Shown here in pieces: positions 46,472-55,719 of a DNA stretch of 64,000 nt (positions are counted from its first letter, which is position 1; each line of letters begins with the position of its first letter). The stretch is from Candidatus Latescibacterota bacterium (GTDB lineage: Bacteria; Latescibacterota; UBA2968; UBA8231), in contig OZ220089.1 of the NCBI GenBank assembly GCA_964291625.2, positions 3,552,001-3,616,000 of the forward strand. Direction: 5' to 3'. The notes under the pieces were generated by a model. It was not told where the DNA came from and did not search any database. It worked only from the letters and a program-made list of their open reading frames with translations. The position numbers were made by a program, and so were the translations under genes.

Positions 46472-47614
46472 GTGAACCTCGAGGAGATCCGCGCCCACTA
46501 CCCCGGCCTCGGCCGGGGGATCCAGCTCAACACCGGCGGCGTCGGGCTGCCGTCGAGGCAGGTGCACGCGGCCGTCCAGGCCGGCTTCGACCAGCTCTAC
46601 GAGGAGCACGTGCCGCCCATCGAGTGGTATACCCTCACGCGCCAGGCGGCCGACACGGCGCGGGCGAAGCTGGCCGCTTTCGTCGGGGCGGCGGAGAGCG
46701 AGATTACCCTCACCGTGAGTACCGCCGACGGCCTCGCGTCAGTCATCGGCGGCATGTCCTGGGAGCCGGGGGACGAGGTGCTGATCACCAGCGAGGAGCA
46801 CCCGGTGCCGCACCAGGCCGTCCTCGGCCTGAAGGAGCGCTACGGCGTCGTCCTCAAGAGCGTGGAGATCGACCACGATCCCGCCGTGGTGGTGGAGCGC
46901 ACGGGGGAGGCCCTGACGCCGCGGACACGCCTGATCTGCATGAGCCACGTCACCACCGACACCGGGCTGGTGATGCCGGCGGAGGAGATCTGCCGGCTGG
47001 CCCGGGAGCGCGGCGTCCCCACCCTGTGGGACGGCTGCCACGCCGTAGCCCAGATCCCCGTGAACCTCCGGGAGATGGGCTGCGACTACTACGCCTCGAA
47101 CTGCTACAAATGGATGCTCGGCCCCATCGGGACGGGCTTCCTCTACGTCAGCGTCGAGGCGCGCCAGGGCCTGAAGCCCCTCCTCCGTCCCCACGACCCC
47201 GAGGCCGGCGCCGCCCAGTACATCACCAGCACCCCCTCCTACGCCCTCTACGCCGGCGTGGCGGCGAGCCTCGACCTCATGGAGAGCATCGGCGGCGTCG
47301 AGGCGATCCAGCGGGAGTCCGCCCGCAAGGCGGAGGACCTCAAGGCGAGGCTGGACGCGGTGGCCGGGGTCTTGGTGCTCAGCTCACGGCGCCCCGACTC
47401 GCAGACCGGCACCGTGACCTTCGCCATCGAAGGCGTCGACGGCGGCCAGGTCTCGACGGCGCTGAAGGAGCGCTGGCAGATCGTGCAGCGGGCCACCTAC
47501 CTGACCGACCCGAGCGGCGTCCGGATCTCGGTGGCGTTCTACATCAGCGAGGCGGAACTGGATGCGCTGGTGGAGGCGGTGAAGGTGCTGGCGGCGGGGG
47601 CGGGGTGGGGGTGA
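46472..47614 (+). CDS. Class V PLP-dependent aminotransferase (cysteine desulfurase/isopenicillin epimerase-like)
   Basis: GTG 46472 after AGGAGG; LNTGG, EHP, SHVTTDTG, DGCHA, NCYKWMLGPIGTG. Confidence 0.85.
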   Translation: MNLEEIRAHYPGLGRGIQLNTGGVGLPSRQVHAAVQAGFDQLYEEHVPPIEWYTLTRQAADTARAKLAAFVGAAESEITLTVSTADGLASVIGGMSWEPGDEVLITSEEHPVPHQAVLGLKERYGVVLKSVEIDHDPAVVVERTGEALTPRTRLICMSHVTTDTGLVMPAEEICRLARERGVPTLWDGCHAVAQIPVNLREMGCDYYASNCYKWMLGPIGTGFLYVSVEARQGLKPLLRPHDPEAGAAQYITSTPSYALYAGVAASLDLMESIGGVEAIQRESARKAEDLKARLDAVAGVLVLSSRRPDSQTGTVTFAIEGVDGGQVSTALKERWQIVQRATYLTDPSGVRISVAFYISEAELDALVEAVKVLAAGAGWG

Positions 47615-47629
47615 GGTCCGGGGGTGGAG

Positions 47630-48694
47630 TCAGGTTCGGTGGCTGTCGATGAGATCGGCGACTTCTCGGAGACGGTTCGCGACGGCCTTGAGCACGTCGT
47701 CGTACTCGACTCCGGTCGGGAGGGCAATGGGCACGAGGAGCGCCTGATTTTCTTCCAGGCACCCGGGCGGGTCGGTACGCTTGAGCGGCTCAAGGGCCCT
47801 GCGCGTTTCCGGCCAGCGGGCTTTGTGCCGCTCATCTCGCCATTGCTCGAAGAAGAGCCAGAGAGGGGTATCCGGATAGGCCCCCCGGGCCCACCAGTTC
47901 TGGCCGATGCCAAACCAGGCGCCCGCGCCTTTCAACGAGAGATACCGTCCATAGCCACGAGCGAGCGGGGTGACAATCAACCCCTTGATGTTGGCATGGC
48001 CTTGGGCCACGGCGCGCTCCGTGGCATCGTCCACGAGACGGCGCAGGCTGAGCAGCCGACGGGGGATCTCCGGCGCCAGTTCCTCCGGCCGGAGCGGCGG
48101 AAACCCACTCTCGTCATCCACCCGATGTGTCAGACCCCGCAACTGCTGTATCTCGTCTCTTGAGGCGGAATCGGCTGCAGCTTCGAGGCGGGCGAGCAGT
48201 TGCGTCCAGCTGATCAGCACCAGGTGCTTCCCCTCATCGGTCGCGCCGCTCTTGAGGGCAGCCTTGTCGAGGATGGAGAGCAGGCCGTCAGCGCCGGCCC
48301 GGCGGCACAGCTCCGGCCAGAGCGTCTCAAGCCTCGATTCAGGCGCGACGAAGAGAAGTGCCTTGCCTGGGGCCAACCTGTCGAGGTAGGCCTTCGGCTG
48401 GTTGGCAGTGAGCCCGGCCCAGAACTTGGCTTCGATTAGAAGGCACTCCTCGCCTTGTGCATCGAGAGCGACCAGGTCGGGCCGCGTCTCTCCCTCGCCG
48501 CTGACCTGGGTCTGGACCCTGGCAATCGTTCCGACATCCGCTCCCCCATCCCTGAGCAGATCCTCCATCACACGGAGCAACGGCTCGGACTTCAGGATGT
48601 AGCCGAGGGCTTCGACCGCGATGTCTTCGTGACTCTTCGCGAGTTTCCACGCGAGATGGGCGAGTAGTGTGTCGCCCTCAGTCTTGTGTTCCAT
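47630..48694 (-). CDS. PD-(D/E)XK-family nuclease-like protein
   Basis: HEDIAVEAL..RPDLVA..LLIEAKFWAGLTANQP; AAGGAG SD; lower GC. Confidence 0.65.
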   Translation of the reverse strand: MEHKTEGDTLLAHLAWKLAKSHEDIAVEALGYILKSEPLLRVMEDLLRDGGADVGTIARVQTQVSGEGETRPDLVALDAQGEECLLIEAKFWAGLTANQPKAYLDRLAPGKALLFVAPESRLETLWPELCRRAGADGLLSILDKAALKSGATDEGKHLVLISWTQLLARLEAAADSASRDEIQQLRGLTHRVDDESGFPPLRPEELAPEIPRRLLSLRRLVDDATERAVAQGHANIKGLIVTPLARGYGRYLSLKGAGAWFGIGQNWWARGAYPDTPLWLFFEQWRDERHKARWPETRRALEPLKRTDPPGCLEENQALLVPIALPTGVEYDDVLKAVANRLREVADLIDSHRT

Positions 48695-48736
48695 TGTGCT
48701 CCTTCACCTCAGCGGGGCCGGCGGAGGACGATCCGT

Positions 48737-51448
48737 TCACCCCTGTGCCCGCGTGTGCAAATCCCTCAGAATCGCCAGGTTCCGCCGGATGTCCCGCGCA
48801 ACCTCGGCGACCTCCTGAGCTACCAGGGGCGTGCGGCCGAGTTCCTGTTCCAGCGCGGTGGTCAACGGCAGGAAGAGCTTCGCTGATGGAGAGCCCTGGA
48901 GAAGCTCGATCATGGGCTCCGGGCCGAGCCTGATGCTGAAGTGCATCAGTTCGTAGGAGCATTCTTCAGGCAGAGTCTCAAACTGGGGAAGGATCTGGAG
49001 GATCTCCTTGATCTCCCTCAGGCAGCAGGTCGGATCACCGCTACGCAGGCTGGCCTTGGCCCGGGTGAGGTGACCGCGCCAGCGGTTCTCCAGCGATTGC
49101 GTGTTGCTCTCGGCGAGCACCCGGCCAGCGGTAGACGCGGCTGCATCGTACCGCCGGCAATCCAGCTCGAGGTCGGCTTTCTCGAGGAGCGCCTGCTCTA
49201 CCCGGCCACGCAGTGAGGGTGAATCATCTCCTCCGAAGCGCCGCACCACTTCCTCCAAGACAGCCAGGCCTTCCTCCTCCCGGTTCTGTTCCCCGAGTGT
49301 CATCCCCTTGTAGGTCAAGGCCACTGCCAGCGGCTCGATGAGGGCGGGGTTCTTGCTCTCACCGAAGCGCTGTATCACCTCCTCATAGGCGGCCAGCTCT
49401 TCCTCCGGTCGGTGCAGCTCGCCAAGTGTGGCGCCCCTGTTGACAAGAGCATTGGCAACCATCTGCAGATTGTCCGGTGTTTCGCTCTCCTCGAATCGGC
49501 GCACCACCTCCTCGTAGACGACCAGCGACTCCTGGGTCCGGCCCAGCGCGCCGAGGGCAGCACCCTTGTTGAGGAGGGCCCTGGCGAGCAACGCCAGATG
49601 TTCCTCCGTTGCGCTCTCTCCGAGCCGCCGTTCCACCTGCTCATACGCGGCCAGTGCCTCCTCCGGTCGGTTCAGGATGGCGAGGGCGACGCCCATGCAG
49701 AAGAGAGCTGCGGCGACCTGCTCAAGAACCTCTGGCAAGGGACACCCGCCGAATCGCCGCACCACCTCCTCAAAGACGGCCAGGGATTCCTCCGTCCGGT
49801 CCAGTTGGGCGAGAGTGACCCCCTTGCTGAGGAGGGCGCCGGTGACCATCTCCACATCCACCTCCGTATCCCCGCCGAATCGCCGTTCCACCTCCCCATA
49901 GGCAGCCAGTGCTTCCTCATGTCCCGCAAGTGCTTCCTCCCATCGGCCCAGTTCTCCAAGAGCCTCCCCTCTGCAGTAGTGGGCTATGGCGACCACTTGG
50001 GAGACCTCGGGTGACCGGCTGTTCCCTAACCGCCGCACGACCTCGTCCCAAGCGGCCAGCGACTCTTCCGGGTCTTTGGCCTGCAGCTCGAACGCTCTGT
50101 GCAACAGCGGCCTCGCAGCCGCCAGCTCTTCGAATTCGTCTTCGGGAAGGAGAGCAAGCAACTCTTCTCGGTGCCTGGCCAGGACCGGCAGTTGCGCCAG
50201 TTGGTCAAGTGCCGTCCAGTACAGCGATCGACGCTCCCCGTCCAGACCGTGCGCCTCCCGGGCGATTCCCTCGCCAATCTCCTTCAACTCGGACCGGGAG
50301 TAGAACGATTCCATGAACTTGATGAGGGCCTGGATCAGGGAATCCGGACCGCCATTGCGGCGCAACAGGTAGTAGATGTTGTACAGGCGCTCGGTCAGGT
50401 AGTACTGCTTGCGCCGGAGGGTGCCGCCCGTCACCTGGACGACGCCCCGCTCGGCGAGGCGGGTGAGCTGGGCGCTGCACTTGCTCGTGTCGACGCGGGA
50501 GCGCTCCGCGATCTCCCTCGTGGTCGCGGGCTTCCACAGGTCGGCCAGCGCTAGGTAGACCCGCCGCTCCTGGGCGGGGAGAGCCTCTATGTGGCCCTTG
50601 AAGTACTCCGTGTGCTCGTCCACGAGATCGAGGAGGTCGTCCATCAGCTCGCGGAAGGAGAGCCCCGCGCCGAAGCGGGCCACGATGGCGACGAGGCGGG
50701 GGCTGCCGCCGGTGAGGATCTCCAGAGGGCGGATCGTCTGGCGCGGGGGAGGCGAGCCGGAGAGCGTTGTCCACAGCTCGGTGCACTCCTCGGTGTGGAG
50801 AGGTTGCAGCGTGCGCACGCGGAACAGGTCGTAGAGGGCGTGGTCCGGTTCGTCGATCTCGGCGAAGCGGCTGGTGGCGCTGGCGAGCAGGATGATGCGC
50901 GGCTCGGTCTGGAGGATCTTGCGCAGCCGCCAGCTGGCGTCGCGGTCCGACATGTCACGGAAAATCGAATTCAGGTTTTCGACCATCAGTACGAGCCGCT
51001 TGCCCTCGCGGTCGGAGAAGTCGAGGAGAGCGCCGAGGCAGCGGTCGCCGAGCGTCTGTTCGTCCCGGATGGTGCGCAGGTCCTCCAGGGTGCGGTGCAA
51101 TTCCGGGGCATCGTCCCCGTCCGGCGCCTGATCCGCCAACCGGGAAAGGGCTTCGAGCCAGAACTCCCCGGCGCTGGTGACCTCGTAGCTCTCCTCGGCG
51201 AAGACGACGGGGAAGAAGTTGCGCGATAACTCCGGATCCCGGCGAACCTCGGCCGCCACGCGCAGGAGCAGGCTGGTCTTGCCGCTGCCGCGCGGGCCGA
51301 TGACGATCTGATGCTGGTTCGACGTGCCGGTGCATCCGCGCAGCATCTCGACCAGGGAGTCGAACTCGGCGGTGCGTACGCAGAACGAGGCCGCCAACTC
51401 CTCGTCGGTGAGGAAGCCCGGGTTGTACTTCCTGACGGGGGCGGTCAT
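48737..51448 (-). CDS. STAND-like P-loop ATPase with winged helix and TPR repeats
   Basis: Walker A GPRGSGKTS, Walker B-like LVLMVEN, TGGSPR, wHTH ATTREIAERSR..CSAQLTRL, multiple ~45-aa TPRs. Confidence 0.8.
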   Translation of the reverse strand: MTAPVRKYNPGFLTDEELAASFCVRTAEFDSLVEMLRGCTGTSNQHQIVIGPRGSGKTSLLLRVAAEVRRDPELSRNFFPVVFAEESYEVTSAGEFWLEALSRLADQAPDGDDAPELHRTLEDLRTIRDEQTLGDRCLGALLDFSDREGKRLVLMVENLNSIFRDMSDRDASWRLRKILQTEPRIILLASATSRFAEIDEPDHALYDLFRVRTLQPLHTEECTELWTTLSGSPPPRQTIRPLEILTGGSPRLVAIVARFGAGLSFRELMDDLLDLVDEHTEYFKGHIEALPAQERRVYLALADLWKPATTREIAERSRVDTSKCSAQLTRLAERGVVQVTGGTLRRKQYYLTERLYNIYYLLRRNGGPDSLIQALIKFMESFYSRSELKEIGEGIAREAHGLDGERRSLYWTALDQLAQLPVLARHREELLALLPEDEFEELAAARPLLHRAFELQAKDPEESLAAWDEVVRRLGNSRSPEVSQVVAIAHYCRGEALGELGRWEEALAGHEEALAAYGEVERRFGGDTEVDVEMVTGALLSKGVTLAQLDRTEESLAVFEEVVRRFGGCPLPEVLEQVAAALFCMGVALAILNRPEEALAAYEQVERRLGESATEEHLALLARALLNKGAALGALGRTQESLVVYEEVVRRFEESETPDNLQMVANALVNRGATLGELHRPEEELAAYEEVIQRFGESKNPALIEPLAVALTYKGMTLGEQNREEEGLAVLEEVVRRFGGDDSPSLRGRVEQALLEKADLELDCRRYDAAASTAGRVLAESNTQSLENRWRGHLTRAKASLRSGDPTCCLREIKEILQILPQFETLPEECSYELMHFSIRLGPEPMIELLQGSPSAKLFLPLTTALEQELGRTPLVAQEVAEVARDIRRNLAILRDLHTRAQG

Positions 51449-52701
51449 CGCTGCGCGAGGGGGACGAAGTGCCCGCCGTGCCGGCCGCGCCACCAGTCTT
51501 CGAGCAGGCCGGAAACAAACCGGTAGCCGTCTCCGTGCCGCTCCAGGTACCCATCGTGTTCGAGCACGCGGAGCACGTCTTCGAGTGGGACCGGATCCGC
51601 CTCCGCCTCGTCCTTGGAGCCGCCTTGGAGATACTCGTGATACCGGCGGATCGTATCGCCACTCAGCAAGCCGTCATTGACGGCGGCTTCGGTCAGAATC
51701 TCCAGGGCGATCCGATACCCCTCCCTTCCGAGCACCATCCTCAGCCGGCCCTCGTAGTGCTCCAGGTCCATCTGCCCGCGGACGCCGAGCATCTCGTTGG
51801 TGTACACGCGCTCCACGTCTTCCATCGTGGCTTCGCGCCGGCCGGTGCGGCGCAGGTCGTCGTGGAGGTTGTCGAAGAACTGCTGCACGTGATGGGGGAT
51901 CAGACACCGCAGCCGCCGGCACATCTCCCGGCGGATGTCGAGGGGAAGGTCGAGGCCGTAGGTCCGAGCCAGTTCCGCGAGGCAGGCGGCTGCCGTCTCC
52001 TCGTCCCAGGGCTTCAGGTCGAAGGCCGAGTGGATGTTGGCGTGAGCGCTGAGCCCCGCCTGTTCCAGGATCGGCTCCAGGCTGACACTGCCGGCGAGGA
52101 TCAGGATGACCCGGTCCCGATGGGTCTGGCCGTTCTTGCGGAGCCAGGCCATGAACTCGTCCACCGCCTGCCGCCGCTCCGGGGTGATGCGGTGGTCAGG
52201 CCCCTTGAGCAGCCTGTTCACGAGGATCGGCAGCTCGTCGATGGCCAGCACCACAGGCCGGTCGCTCTCGGCCAGGGCGGCGAAGACCTCGTCCCCCTTC
52301 TGGCGCCAGCTTCCGGCGTCGATCCCAGCGCGGAGCTTGACCTGGATCTCACCGACGGCCACCGAGTCGACTCGATCGCCGATGTCTCTCAGGGTGTTGG
52401 CGAATCCGGCCTTGATTCCCGGCCAGGCGCCCCTCACCGACCTTGACCGGGCCCCGATCTCGGCGATGGCGTCGGCCGGGGCGACGGCGTCCTCCAGATC
52501 GACGAAGACCGTCTCGAAGCGGCCATCTTCGTCCAGGCGGCGCAGCAGCTCCCGGACAAGGCTCGTCTTTCCCATCCGCCGCTGGGCTGTCAGCAGGGTA
52601 TGCGTGCCGTTCCTGACCCGCTCGGCCAGGGCTTCGAGCTCCACCTCCCGGTCGAAGAACCGGTCCCCGTCCACCCAGTTGGCCCCTGCTTTCCTCAGCA
52701 T
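51445..52701 (-). CDS. AAA/archaeal-type ATPase (STAND-like), translationally coupled to the TPR ATPase
   Basis: FFDREVEL, AQRRMGKTS, VVLAIDE, LAGS, C-terminal LEHDGYL..F..GLLEDWW; ATGA overlap. Confidence 0.8.
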   Translation of the reverse strand: MLRKAGANWVDGDRFFDREVELEALAERVRNGTHTLLTAQRRMGKTSLVRELLRRLDEDGRFETVFVDLEDAVAPADAIAEIGARSRSVRGAWPGIKAGFANTLRDIGDRVDSVAVGEIQVKLRAGIDAGSWRQKGDEVFAALAESDRPVVLAIDELPILVNRLLKGPDHRITPERRQAVDEFMAWLRKNGQTHRDRVILILAGSVSLEPILEQAGLSAHANIHSAFDLKPWDEETAAACLAELARTYGLDLPLDIRREMCRRLRCLIPHHVQQFFDNLHDDLRRTGRREATMEDVERVYTNEMLGVRGQMDLEHYEGRLRMVLGREGYRIALEILTEAAVNDGLLSGDTIRRYHEYLQGGSKDEAEADPVPLEDVLRVLEHDGYLERHGDGYRFVSGLLEDWWRGRHGGHFVPLAQR

Positions 52702-52715
52702 CTCCGTGCCCTTCC

Positions 52716-52779
52716 CAACGTATCCGTTGGCAACGATCTTGTTGGCAACGAATTTGTTGGTAAGGCCGGGAAATGTCAA
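52716..52779 (-). promoter_or_regulatory. TTGACA followed by three tandem 15-bp palindromic operators
   Basis: CAACGTATCCGTTGG, CAACGATCTTGTTGG, CAACGAATTTGTTGG (52716-52760); TTGACA on minus strand at 52779-52774. Confidence 0.75.
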
Positions 52780-52849
52780 GGGGGGCTATTGCCCGCGTCC
52801 CGAGAATTCGCAGCAGCTGCCCGAATCGGCCGCAGGGCGCGGCCGTGGA

Positions 52850-53601
52850 TCAGATCCAGTCCTGGGGATCTTGTGCCAGGATGACTTCGCTCAACGGGGC
52901 AAAGAGGACCGGCCGGTAGTGTAGAAAGGGACCAGCCGGCCCGTCTCATCCGGCTTCAGTTCAGAGCGCATCCAGTCACTCAGCATCTCCGGATCGCCGG
53001 CATCCTCGACTTGCCTCCACTCTTCCCCCAGGCCGTTCCATCGTTTCTCGCGCGCCGACCGGAGCCGTTCCGAGTTGAGGTTCAGAATCTCGATGGTGCG
53101 AGTCACGCGGTCGGGGGGAAAGCCGGCCGTGCCGCATGCGCTTTCATCGGCCTCGATCAACCCGTTGTCGATCACCCGCAGAAGCGACGGCAACGCGGGA
53201 AGGCCCCGGGGGTCGACAAAGCGCTCGTCGCTCTGATTCCCCTTCGCCTGGCCGCAGCTCGGTTTCCCGCGCTTGCGATTGCCCTCCTCCGAGTCGGGAA
53301 CCGAAAGGGCTGTACCAGGACAGCAGGCGACCATGTTGGCTATGTCGAGGGCCTTGGCTTGGCCCGATTCGGCGTCGCTCTGCGGGATCACGTGCTCCAC
53401 CTGACGATGCCGTCCACCAATCGCAATCTCGCAGTAGGCGCAGAGGCCGCGCTGGCTCAGGGTCAGTGATTCCCTGAGTTCCTCGTACGATGCTCCGGAA
53501 GTGTGAGAACGGAACTCGACCCAGTTTGCCTTCGCGCCGACGGAAGCGAGGTATGCGGCCAGGCCGGGAGTCGGGTCGTTGACTTCGCGGATCTTCTTCA
53601 C
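52850..53601 (-). CDS. HNH endonuclease, PtuB / retron-associated TIGR02646-like; probable C-terminal frameshift near 52905
   Basis: QRGLCAYCE, VEHVIPQS, NMVACC, SCGQAKG, TIEILNLN; an alternate frame continues FAPLSEVILAQDPQDWI* to 52850. Confidence 0.75.
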
Positions 53602-54899
53602 CTCGACTCGAACCGCTGGCTGAACAGCTTGCGCCGCCGGATCTCGAGGTCGGCACGATCGAGGGCCGGATCCTGGGGGGACATGTCCTCCAAGCGCGTC
53701 CGCAAGTCCTGGGCTTCCTTGGATTCCCATTGTTCCTCCCTGATCAGATGCCGGTAACGATCCAGGGTCTTTGTGAAGTCGTTCTCTGGCGGCCGTTCGC
53801 CTACGCCCATCACCACGGATAGAACGTCGCCGGCCTCGGCTCCGAACGTCGGCCCGGCCGGGGCCCCGGCGACGACGCGGTCGCCGTCGTGAGAGAGTTC
53901 CACGATCCCGTGAGGCTCGACAGTAGTCAGTACCTGCGGGCTGTGGGTTGATACGATGAACTGGGAGTTCGGAAACGTGCGCCTGAGATCGCCAAGGATC
54001 CGCTGCTGCCAGCTCGGATGCAGATGCAGTTCCACCTCGTCGATCAGGACGATCGCTTCGGATTCGAGGGGGTCGTCGAGATGGGGGTTTCCCTGGGCCA
54101 TTCGGCGAGCGAGGTCCGCGGCGAGGGCAAGCATTATGCGGTAGCCGCCGCTCAACTGGTCGAGGGAGAGCTTCTTCATCCCTCCTTGTTGCGGTCTCAC
54201 GGATACTACAAGCTGGAGCGGATTCAGCTCGGTGCGCGGTTCGGACACCTCAGGGAGCATGGAGGTAATCGCCTGGCGAACCGTGGACAGATCGTCCAAC
54301 TGGTATTCGAAATCGCGCCGCTCCTTCTGTTCCCTCAGCTCCTCGTCTTCCTTGATAAAAAACCAGCCCAGGAGGCCCTTGAAGTCCGTGCGGGCAGACA
54401 AGGCTCCTTCCAAGGCAGCGAACCGGACGAATGGACTGACAGTCTTGGGTTACCGTGGCGCCTTCCGCACACCCGAGACGTTGCGGTCGGTGCTGTAGAA
54501 GGCAACGATCGGCAGATCGCCAACTGGCTCTTGTACGTCCGCATTCCGGGGCAGGCCCATGCTTTCCAGCAACCTGCCAAGGCCAACCAGTCTCTTGGCC
54601 ACCGCCCTGTCATCACCCTGCTTTCCCCCTTGTCGTTCCCAGGTGGTTCCATCGGTTGCGGTGAGCGATACGCGCGGAGCCTCCGCGCCAGTGCGTTGAT
54701 CCTCCTCGGAGAAGTCAAGGCCCGATCTGTCCTGAGGCAGCAAGTCCGAGATCGCCCCCAGGCCCACGGCGATCGCGCTCAAGACACTTGTCTTGCCCTG
54801 TCCATTGGGGCCGTAGAAGACCGTCAGGGACGGGTCGAGGGGGAGCGTGAGCTGCTCGATGGCGCGGTAGTTCTCGATCTCCACGGATTTCAGCTTCAC
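53598..54899 (-). pseudogene. PtuA-like ABC/AAA ATPase interrupted by an in-frame TAA (54450-54452)
   Basis: IENYRAI, GPNGQGKTS; after the stop, same frame: QLSGGY, LIDEVELHLHPSWQ, QFIVSTHSPQV; coupled to the HNH gene. Confidence 0.8.
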
Positions 54900-54990
54900 G
54901 GTAGCCTCTCTTCCGCTCGGCGCTCGGTCAGAAACCGCTATATCCGCCCACCAGGATAGGCGAGATGGGCCATGAGAAAGATAACCACCC

Positions 54991-55719
54991 TCACTCCACC
55001 GAGCCCTGCCCCAGCGGCTTGACCACCAACTCCGAGATCACCACCCGCGGAGGCAGCGCCGCTACGTAGATCACCACGTCGGCGATGTCCTCGGGTTGCA
55101 GGATCCGCGCCTTGTGCTCGTCGGAGACCTTCACCGGCCGCTGGTCGAGGATGGGGGTGTTGATCTCGCCGGGGGAGATGACGCTGGCGCGGATGCCGTG
55201 CTTCGCCTCCTCGAGGTTGACGGTCTGGGTGACGACGGACATGGCGTGCTTGGCGGCGGAGTAGGCGGCGCCGGCGAGGACGCCGGGGGCGGTGCCGGCC
55301 ACGGAGGAGATGGCGATCACGAGGCCGTCCCGCTGGCGGCGCATGATGGGCAGGACCTCGTGGAGGGTGTTGAAGGCGCCGGTGGCGTTGACGTCCATCT
55401 GCAGGTCCCAGTTCTCCGGGGAGAGCTTCTCCAGGGAGCGGTCGACGACGTTGACGCCGGCGTTGTTGACGAGCACGTCGACGCGGCCGAACTCGCCCAG
55501 GGTCCAGTCGACGACCTCCTTCACGCGGGCCCGGTCCCGGACGTCGCCGGCCATGGGGTGGGCGCCGTCGCCGGCCTTGTCGCAGGCGGCCCTCAGCCGG
55601 GTCTCGTCGCGGCCCATGGTCACCACCTGGGCGCCCTCGCGCACGCAGCCCTCGACGATGGCGGCGCCGGCGCCGGAGCCGCCGCCGGTGACGATGAATA
55701 CCTGGTCCTTGAGCTTCAT
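54991..55719 (-). CDS. Short-chain dehydrogenase/reductase
   Basis: TGGGSGAG, VNNAG, YSAAK, PGEINT. Confidence 0.9.
   Translation of the reverse strand: MKLKDQVFIVTGGGSGAGAAIVEGCVREGAQVVTMGRDETRLRAACDKAGDGAHPMAGDVRDRARVKEVVDWTLGEFGRVDVLVNNAGVNVVDRSLEKLSPENWDLQMDVNATGAFNTLHEVLPIMRRQRDGLVIAISSVAGTAPGVLAGAAYSAAKHAMSVVTQTVNLEEAKHGIRASVISPGEINTPILDQRPVKVSDEHKARILQPEDIADVVIYVAALPPRVVISELVVKPLGQGSVE

Follow-up and report, generated by a model that had tools for sequence, protein, structure and literature searches.

The locus considered here raises the question of which of three adjacent genes belong together, and what the unit they form does. The genes lie in a 64,000-nt stretch (the window) of the genome of a Candidatus Latescibacterota bacterium (GTDB lineage Bacteria; Latescibacterota; UBA2968; UBA8231), positions 3,552,001 to 3,616,000 of the forward strand of contig OZ220089.1 in assembly GCA_964291625.2. 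They encode a small ATPase (P0001), a larger ATPase carrying a tetratricopeptide repeat (TPR) array (P0002) and a PD-(D/E)XK-type protein (P0003). An original prediction, made from the sequence and its open reading frames (ORFs), described three co-oriented genes in a lower-GC block and proposed an uncharacterised split defence system in which the two ATPases sense and the nuclease acts. The layout is essentially as described: all three genes lie on the minus strand of the window, in a block whose guanine-plus-cytosine (GC) content is 0.61-0.69 over positions 47500-55000 versus 0.71-0.79 in the flanks; an ATGA overlap joins the stop of P0001 to the start of P0002; and P0003 follows P0002 after a gap of 42 nt, given previously as 43 bp. 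The grouping that emerges from related genomes is a different one. The conserved unit is the ATPase pair, which is very probably an autonomous, autoregulated two-gene module.

P0001 and P0002 occur together throughout their families. With P0001 as the bait and one genome per species, 182 stretches were found to encode relatives, and in 78 of the 80 loci kept the P0001 relative is directly followed by a P0002 relative. The reciprocal search with the N-terminus of P0002 returned more than 594 relatives; here too 80 loci were kept, and in 76 of them the P0002 relative is immediately preceded by the end of a full-length P0001 relative. The coupling that had been proposed for the two ATPases therefore holds far beyond the window. 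Gene junctions in the 78 loci range from -17 to +27 nt, with a median of 4 nt, and 26 of them are overlaps. Clustering of all flanking ORFs revealed none besides the pair that is common to more than 8 of the 80 loci. The P0001 family is large, comprising 604 clusters at 50% identity with E<=1e-30, and among the best 150 representatives nearly all full-length matches are 400-430 aa long.

Databases annotate the two proteins only as 'ATP-binding protein' and 'tetratricopeptide repeat protein'. PADLOC v2 contains no model for the pair, giving only weak P-loop-level matches to mad8 (4.9e-5 and 3.2e-4), and nothing in NCBIfam comes near its cut-off for P0001 or P0002; the description of the pair as uncharacterised, for which a PADLOC run had been suggested as a check, thus stands with respect to both collections. 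A literature search found no description of the pair. A 2026 preprint (10.64898/2026.01.04.697583) classifies 589 STAND clades, including an 'MNS' clade that Kaur et al. (2021) also mention, and its clade tables may already hold the clade of the pair.

The nuclease does not share this association, and a three-gene system with the ATPase pair as sensor and P0003 as dedicated effector is very unlikely. Locally such a system looks plausible: P0003 is co-oriented and close behind the pair with its own Shine-Dalgarno sequence, no terminator-like site lies between them, its D...ExK motif is invariant, and the same gene order recurs in two related genomes (loci L080 and L081). However, a P0003 relative follows the pair in only 2 of the 80 pair loci. 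Conversely, P0003 as bait returned 122 relatives, of which 79 loci (L001-L079) were kept, and the pair lies within 8 kb in only two of these: one is a syntenic relative of the window, and the other, L061, has a different, divergent layout. In the remaining 77 loci the P0003 family stands alone. The window, L080 and L081 carry the three genes at the same chromosomal site; because all cases with this order come from one syntenic site in one lineage of close relatives, they count as a single event. Since the trio is rare and confined to that site, it represents a lineage-specific juxtaposition in a variable island; only the two ATPase genes form a conserved unit. Around P0003 relatives no neighbour recurs in more than 10 of 79 loci, and the nearest ORFs of this family (n=135) are mostly metabolic or housekeeping genes, with some toxin-antitoxin and transposase genes. 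A second P0003 copy or fragment is present in 13 of the 79 loci. The proposed link between nuclease and ATPases is thus lost once the families are surveyed; P0003 is most likely not a core component of the pair system, and its family may be one of stand-alone or selfish nucleases.

What does accompany the pair is its promoter. Upstream of P0001, a -35-like TTGACA is followed by three CAAC-N6-GTTG palindromes, the last half-site of which overlaps the ribosome-binding region of the gene. These repeats, described before as an operator-laden promoter, hold up and exceed chance by a wide margin, with two occurrences of GTTGSCAAC in the window where 0.11 would be expected, and the double operator site is found once in the 5.9-Mb genome. 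An exact CAAC-N6-GTTG lies within 120 bp upstream in 69 of 79 related loci but in none of 79 control regions taken 1 kb upstream. The relaxed form NAAC-N6-GTTN is present in 74 of the 79, with 148 sites in the 120-bp upstream regions versus 100 in the remaining locus DNA of about 1 Mb. A 15-bp spacing holds for 54 of 74 intervals; the spacers are 76% A+T and appear to double as the -10 region. The same promoter-operator layout precedes P0001 relatives in nearly all loci, across phyla. A consensus promoter scan returned no site at the pair promoter, and a scan of 47400-55100 gave no terminator-like or sigma-70-like site above chance. From its sequence and position, the array is best interpreted as a putative operator through which a dimeric winged-helix domain encoded by the pair would regulate the pair's own expression.

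The array varies in extent among relatives. In L096 (7840-8000) a 15-nt operator-like unit, ggcaacggaatcgat, forms a tandem array of about nine copies upstream of the pair, and L083 carries five copies of an operator variant of its own; operator copy number is thus expandable.

An operator of this kind would also suit a non-defence function, namely a MalT-like pair of ATP- and ligand-controlled regulators that would act as a repressor at its own promoter and regulate host genes at other sites. This alternative is possible but not likely. It would account for winged helices in both proteins, for the conservation of the operator over the promoter, for the lack of an enzymatic effector and for the fact that most neighbours are not defence genes; STAND clades do include transcriptional regulators, according to the preprint (10.64898/2026.01.04.697583). 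However, with a single double operator in the whole 5.9-Mb genome, there is no regulon that has it in common (single or degenerate sites were not searched for), and there is no conserved target gene near the pair. Transfer across phyla at 60-70% identity, together with patchiness within a genus, would moreover be unusual for a housekeeping regulator.

P0001 is an AAA+ ATPase of the ATPase_2 type. It scores 34.5 bits against Pfam ATPase_2 (PF01637; cut-off 33.2), and the motifs AQRRMGKT and AIDE, on which its earlier designation as a small ATPase rested, are borne out by the family, in which the acidic pair of the latter never varies. The AlphaFold2 model (predicted local distance difference test, pLDDT, 89) has as its top Foldseek matches the archaeal proteins 2qen (3.7e-10) and 2fna (3.7e-9), which are also its sole sequence matches in the PDB. 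These are followed by the Orc1/Cdc6 structures 2qby (2.1e-8) and 2v1u (4e-8), with CED-4 lower in the list. Over the Orc1/Cdc6 set of 2qby, 2v1u, 1w5s and 1fnn, E-values are 2e-8 to 3e-7, with template-modelling (TM) scores of only 0.39-0.49. No fused effector was found among the best 150 representatives of the P0001 family: of the longer or N-terminally extended ones, the four that were scanned (P0170, P0146, P0270 and P0224) contain ATPase or TPR families only. In P0170 (700 aa), TPR repeats are fused directly behind the ATPase, so the short partner can also gain a repeat sensor. The search for fused forms yielded one further relative, P0123, which combines the C-terminal part of P0001 with a P0002-type protein, perhaps through a frameshift or as an artefact of gene calling.

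P0002 contains a second, related ATPase domain, aligned to that of P0001 by hhalign over 189 columns at 25% identity. It reaches the Pfam cut-offs for AAA_16 (37.1 vs 32.6) and TrmB (31.4 vs 25.6) and, over residues 4-70 only, that of the ORC-CDC6-like family (33.7 vs 27); it also matches TPR_12 (1.7e-16), TPR_1 and TPR_2, and its ATPase_2 score of 20.8 is under the cut-off. Its motifs were read as GPRGSGKT and LMVEN. The architecture of ATPase, winged helix and TPR, with a canonical Walker A and a degenerate Walker B, is as first described, and the EN of the latter is present in all 45 sequences compared. Profile alignment places E157-N158 opposite D155-E156 of P0001, so that P0002 keeps the metal-binding acid and has Asn in place of the catalytic Glu. 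An AAA+ site lacking the catalytic Glu should bind ATP and hydrolyse it poorly. From such general knowledge of AAA+ proteins, P0002 is predicted to bind ATP with little or no hydrolysis.

The remainder of P0002 is variable in length. Its relatives span 527-1662 aa, the size being set mainly by the number of repeats. The helical C-terminal tail (S..A.LLlPLttALe.elG..prVa.EV.evA.DIR) is kept even in TPR-poor relatives, and an Atlas search with residues 745-903 gave TPR-like leads only, all under 0.9. Pfam detects no effector family in P0001 or P0002, in agreement with the earlier statement that neither ATPase has a fused effector; P0002 relatives were screened for fusions within the loci retrieved.

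By fold and Pfam family, the pair belongs with the archaeal ATPase_2 and Orc1-Cdc6-like ATPases. The closest archaeal proteins, PAB2304 of P. abyssi (2qen) and SSO1545 of S. solfataricus (2fna), which we take to be 'MNS'-type relatives of STAND, share the AAA+ core, lid and winged-helix layout of P0001, which reaches the Pfam cut-off of their family and finds in them its best structural and sequence matches. They are single proteins of unknown function, whereas P0001 is obligately paired with a Walker-B-deviant TPR paralogue and has an operator. With Orc1/Cdc6, P0001 shares the AAA+ plus winged-helix fold and the presence of short DNA repeats beside the gene. The origin recognition complex (ORC) uses catalytically unequal AAA+ subunits in a heteromer, and archaeal Orc1 genes similarly adjoin their origin repeats. 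The pair differs from Orc1/Cdc6 in having its repeats inside a promoter and apparently outside any element or origin context, in its bacterial hosts and in its TPR array. An ORC-like replication initiator pair, with the iteron-like repeats as the origin of a small integrated element, is most improbable. The Orc1/Cdc6-like fold of P0001, the ORC-CDC6-like Pfam match in P0002 and the direct 15-bp repeats adjoining an initiator-like gene would fit it, but in every locus the repeats sit exactly between the -35-like TTGACA and the ribosome-binding site, and the pair has no conserved neighbours of the integrase, partition or other element type. Close relatives are also missing from plasmids (two distant matches), phages (one partial match) and IMG/VR (one weak partial match).

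The pair is spread horizontally between many bacterial phyla. Relatives of P0001 with 47-88% identity occur in at least nine phyla. Those at 61-88% come from Latescibacterota, Acidobacteriota, Binatota, Chloroflexota, Gemmatimonadota, Rhodothermota, Pseudomonadota, Spirochaetia and others, and a clade at 47-48% comprises Thermodesulfobacteriota and Myxococcota. A quick maximum-likelihood tree of 47 sequences requires 13 changes of phylum (minimum 8) and contains well-supported cross-phylum pairs, one of them being Binatota with Thermodesulfobacteriota at branch lengths below 0.1. Distribution is patchy at close range: a P0001 relative at E<=1e-40 is present in 35 of 168 genomes of the phylum and in 3 of 10 of the genus. 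Metagenome contigs from runs X1 and X3 show a summed depth at 50325-50569 and 51060-51304, over the conserved ATPase of P0002, that is 10-20x that of neighbouring bins, which points to many different carriers of the pair in the same communities.

On plasmids, the two distant matches in the collection are a Clostridium pair and a solo gene beside a type I restriction gene. The former, from a Clostridium estertheticum plasmid, is 23% identical, has an 8-bp gene overlap and shows the same type of Walker B (IVENL). At L160 (plasmid pCF003-70, 5941-9991), the Clostridium pair has an AAAC-N6-GTTG site upstream and genes for DUF3800, a GIY-YIG nuclease and an integrase behind it. The C. estertheticum plasmid pair would allow tests in a cultured Firmicute plasmid. 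The phage collection holds no close relatives of the pair, giving one partial match, and IMG/VR only one weak partial match.

Defence genes are recurrent among the neighbours of the pair. From 77 loci, 131 nearest ORFs were chosen, of which 129 were submitted to PADLOC, two P0003 relatives being left out; 19 of the 129, in 16 of the 77 loci, match at E<=1e-12. They are PtuA/B, HmaB/DUF1156 methylase, type III restriction endonuclease, AbiEi, type I methyltransferase, JetA, NsnA, PD-Lambda-1 and an HNH effector, to which Pfam adds HEPN, HicB, NYN, GmrSD_N and several transposases or integrases. The enrichment in defence islands that was to be checked thus finds moderate support as an association, but 19 of 129 is a raw rate with no matched background, and for lack of such a control the neighbourhood is suggestive of enrichment and does not amount to a test of it.

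The same neighbourhood bears on another reading, that of a selfish addiction module resembling a toxin-antitoxin system, in which one growth-inhibitory ATPase would be held in check by the other and the tandem operators would mediate autorepression. A tightly coupled operon of two overlapping or nearly overlapping genes, tandem palindromic operators over its promoter, horizontal spread and patchiness, and AbiEi, HicB and HEPN genes adjoining the pair in several loci are all consistent with it. Against this, both proteins are large, the long and variable TPR array fits ligand sensing better than simple neutralisation, and neither Pfam nor Foldseek revealed a known toxin fold. The reading also overlaps with abortive-infection defence and is compatible with it. 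An addiction module is, overall, rather unlikely.

These observations favour the interpretation of the pair as an autoregulated, mobile, NLR-like conflict sensor acting against phages or other mobile elements, to which we assign a probability of about 0.5; the defence or conflict role itself, which we infer from the data above, carries the same probability. A tentative mechanism, less probable than the role itself, can be sketched for such a sensor. One of the two winged helices would bind the three-palindrome array and repress the promoter of the pair; the TPR array of P0002 would bind a foreign ligand; ATP-bound P0002 and hydrolysing P0001 would then form a hetero-oligomer. Because no fused or conserved enzymatic effector accompanies the pair, the output would either be exerted on DNA via the winged helices or depend on a partner that is not encoded nearby. 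An unlikely further reading is that of an effector-less immune sensor composed of two unequal ORC-like AAA+ subunits, the TPR-bearing, ATP-locked one recognising the invader. Both subunits would assemble on DNA through their winged helices and block replication or transcription, and the CAAC-N6-GTTG array would keep the module silent until it is triggered.

Several points weigh against a conflict sensor. No enzymatic effector is present in the pair, which leaves the output step as pure conjecture. No named family in PADLOC v2 or NCBIfam backs a defence role, and the two ATPases score only 20.7 and 22.4 bits against Pfam nSTAND1 (cut-off 27.1). Most of the nearest ORFs (110 of 129) have no PADLOC match, and many loci lie among housekeeping genes such as those for acetate kinase, pyrroloquinoline quinone (PQQ) dehydrogenase, major facilitator superfamily (MFS) transporters and aldo-keto reductase. 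Finally, a gap of 42 nt separates the pair from the co-oriented P0003, the scanned interval contains no terminator-like site, and in the window P0003 may be co-transcribed with the pair.

Among known systems, the closest in mode of operation is the Avs/NLR-type STAND sensor, yet the pair has neither the fused effector nor the match to a named model that mark that group. Shared features are a P-loop ATPase with a helical lid and a winged helix, behind which lies a variable repeat sensor of the TPR type, horizontal mobility and a partial defence-island context; CED-4 also appears in the list of structures similar to P0001, ranking behind Orc1/Cdc6 and the archaeal ATPases. The pair differs in that no effector domain is fused, the NTPase is split into two paralogous genes of which one has an hhhhEN Walker B, no Avs model of PADLOC or NCBIfam is matched (nSTAND1 stays below its cut-off), and a conserved operator array is present.

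The features of the locus are collected in Table 1. The end at 52779 given previously corresponds to a longer ORF of P0001 that starts at TTG. The low-GC block is bordered by housekeeping genes: a class-V aminotransferase gene flanks it at one end, and the other end adjoins genes for a short-chain dehydrogenase, TauD and a sugar-phosphate isomerase-like protein. The repeat search found no flanking direct repeats at the ends of the island. RNA contigs of run X13 hold pieces of P0001, P0002 and P0003 that are 90-99% identical, which does not by itself demonstrate transcription; pieces of the same identity also occur in runs labelled sponge metagenome.

Table 1. Positions of genes, domains, motifs and regulatory elements in the window.
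Feature	Position in window	Strand	Remarks
P0001, 418 aa from ATG	51445..52701	-	ATPase_2 / Orc1-Cdc6-like AAA+ core, lid, C-terminal winged helix
P0001 Walker A, R41-S47 (RRMGKTS)	52561..52581	-	G44, K45 and S47 invariant in 47 sequences
P0001 Walker B acidic pair, D155-E156	52234..52239	-	invariant in 47 sequences
P0002, 903 aa	48737..51448	-	ATPase, winged helix, TPR array, conserved helical tail
P0002 Walker A, G51-T58	51275..51298	-	G51, G54, G56, K57 and T58 invariant in 45 sequences
P0002 deviant Walker B, V156-E157-N158-L159-N160	50969..50983	-	invariant in 45 sequences
P0002 winged helix, residues 293-355	50384..50572	-	Pfam TrmB 293-350, HTH_24 309-338
P0002 TPR array, 5-7 copies of a 129-nt (43-aa) repeat	49230..50073	-	repeat families D1-D3; Pfam TPR 466-700
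P0002 helical C-terminal tail, about residues 790-903	48740..49081	-	conserved block, 73 sequences
P0003, 354 aa	47630..48694	-	stand-alone PD-(D/E)XK-type; neighbour of the pair, probably not a core part
P0003 N-terminal nuclease-fold domain, residues 10-178	48161..48667	-	AlphaFold2 model, pLDDT 79
P0003 C-terminal alpha/beta domain, residues 206-354	47633..48079	-	mixed middling matches only
-35-like TTGACA of the pair promoter	52774..52779	-	TTGACA <=120 bp upstream in 57/79 related loci
Putative operator array, three CAAC-N6-GTTG palindromes, 15-bp spacing	52711..52760	-	read from the sequence; over the pair promoter
PtuB (HNH)	52891..53601	-	start inferred at a GTG overlapping the PtuA stop
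PtuA (ABC-type ATPase)	53598..54899	-	interrupted by in-frame TAA at 54450-54452

Immediately upstream of the pair lies a Septu (PtuAB) gene pair, which the original prediction had already recognised as PtuAB-like. PADLOC matches both genes. PtuB, which looks intact, is matched at 9.3e-48 from residue 45 of its long ORF and scores 61 against TIGR02646 (cut-off 52.15). PtuA is matched at 5.6e-90 over profile positions 183-452 only (the C-terminal two thirds); its one-frame translation, however, contains a single internal stop, a TAA at codon 150. The stretch 53982-54816 of PtuA is also present, without a difference, in another assembly (run X1) from the probable source sample. PtuAB is broken in the window, reduced to a remnant in L081 and absent from L080, and the Septu pair of the window has the appearance of a defence system undergoing decay within a variable island. 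In 8 of 80 other loci, members of this PtuAB subfamily are found no more than 8 kb from the ATPase pair, either upstream or downstream, and PtuAB proteins 45-67% identical to those of the window occur near the pair in L082, L087, L094, L104, L105, L106 and L124, which belong to several phyla. This recurrence suggests co-transfer on shared islands or a functional liaison. Septu is composed of unrelated protein families (an ABC-type ATPase and an HNH protein) and is absent from 72 of the 80 pair loci.

P0003 has no match at E<=0.01 in Pfam, PADLOC or NCBIfam, and its model has none at E<=0.001 in a Foldseek search of the PDB. The reading of its gene as encoding a PD-(D/E)XK-like nuclease nevertheless holds: D73, E88, K90 and Q99 are invariant in 61 sequences, and the N-terminal half is accepted as a PD-(D/E)XK nuclease domain. 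Its PDDEXK_4 score is 14.3 bits (cut-off 22.3), and 35 of the 61 relatives give sub-threshold matches to that family, the best at 1.7e-4. In VIA-align, the N-terminal domain reaches Z scores, all in a middling range, of 7.5 with the R.BspD6I small subunit, 7.1 with N.BspD6I, 6.9 with EcoT38I, 6.6 with AF1548, 6.5 with Can2 and 6.3 with NucS. Matches of the C-terminal domain are likewise middling (MotA C-terminal domain, Z 7.4; Pfu-178653, Z 7.2), and 13 longer relatives contain no informative extra domain. The Atlas neighbour cluster of P0003 is named 'Restriction endonuclease'. With PDDEXK_4 and restriction endonucleases, P0003 shares the invariant D...ExK followed by Q..xY, the sub-threshold family matches and fold matches of Z 5-7.5 (middling); it differs in reaching no Pfam cut-off, in its additional C-terminal domain and in having no methylase or other partner, and its family differs in being multi-copy, often tandem, and located among housekeeping genes.

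Multiple copies per genome, often in tandem, are seen for example in L015, L017, L019, L042, L066, L067, L073 and L074, and contig OZ250139.1 alone holds three loci of the family (L013, L060 and L078). At L061 (245-7068; Longimicrobiales), two divergent copies of the ATPase pair lie in opposite orientation beside a P0003 relative.

For this locus, an inference of function from adjacency is corrected, the nuclease being a separate, multi-copy, stand-alone family. The ATPases constitute a large family, annotated only generically, that passes between phyla with a constant composition of two genes and a constant operator. If the pair is a defence system, it would represent NLR-like sensing without a fused effector, in which labour is divided between two ATPase paralogues. 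If it is not, it would offer a clean case of a protein-operator pair conserved across at least nine phyla.

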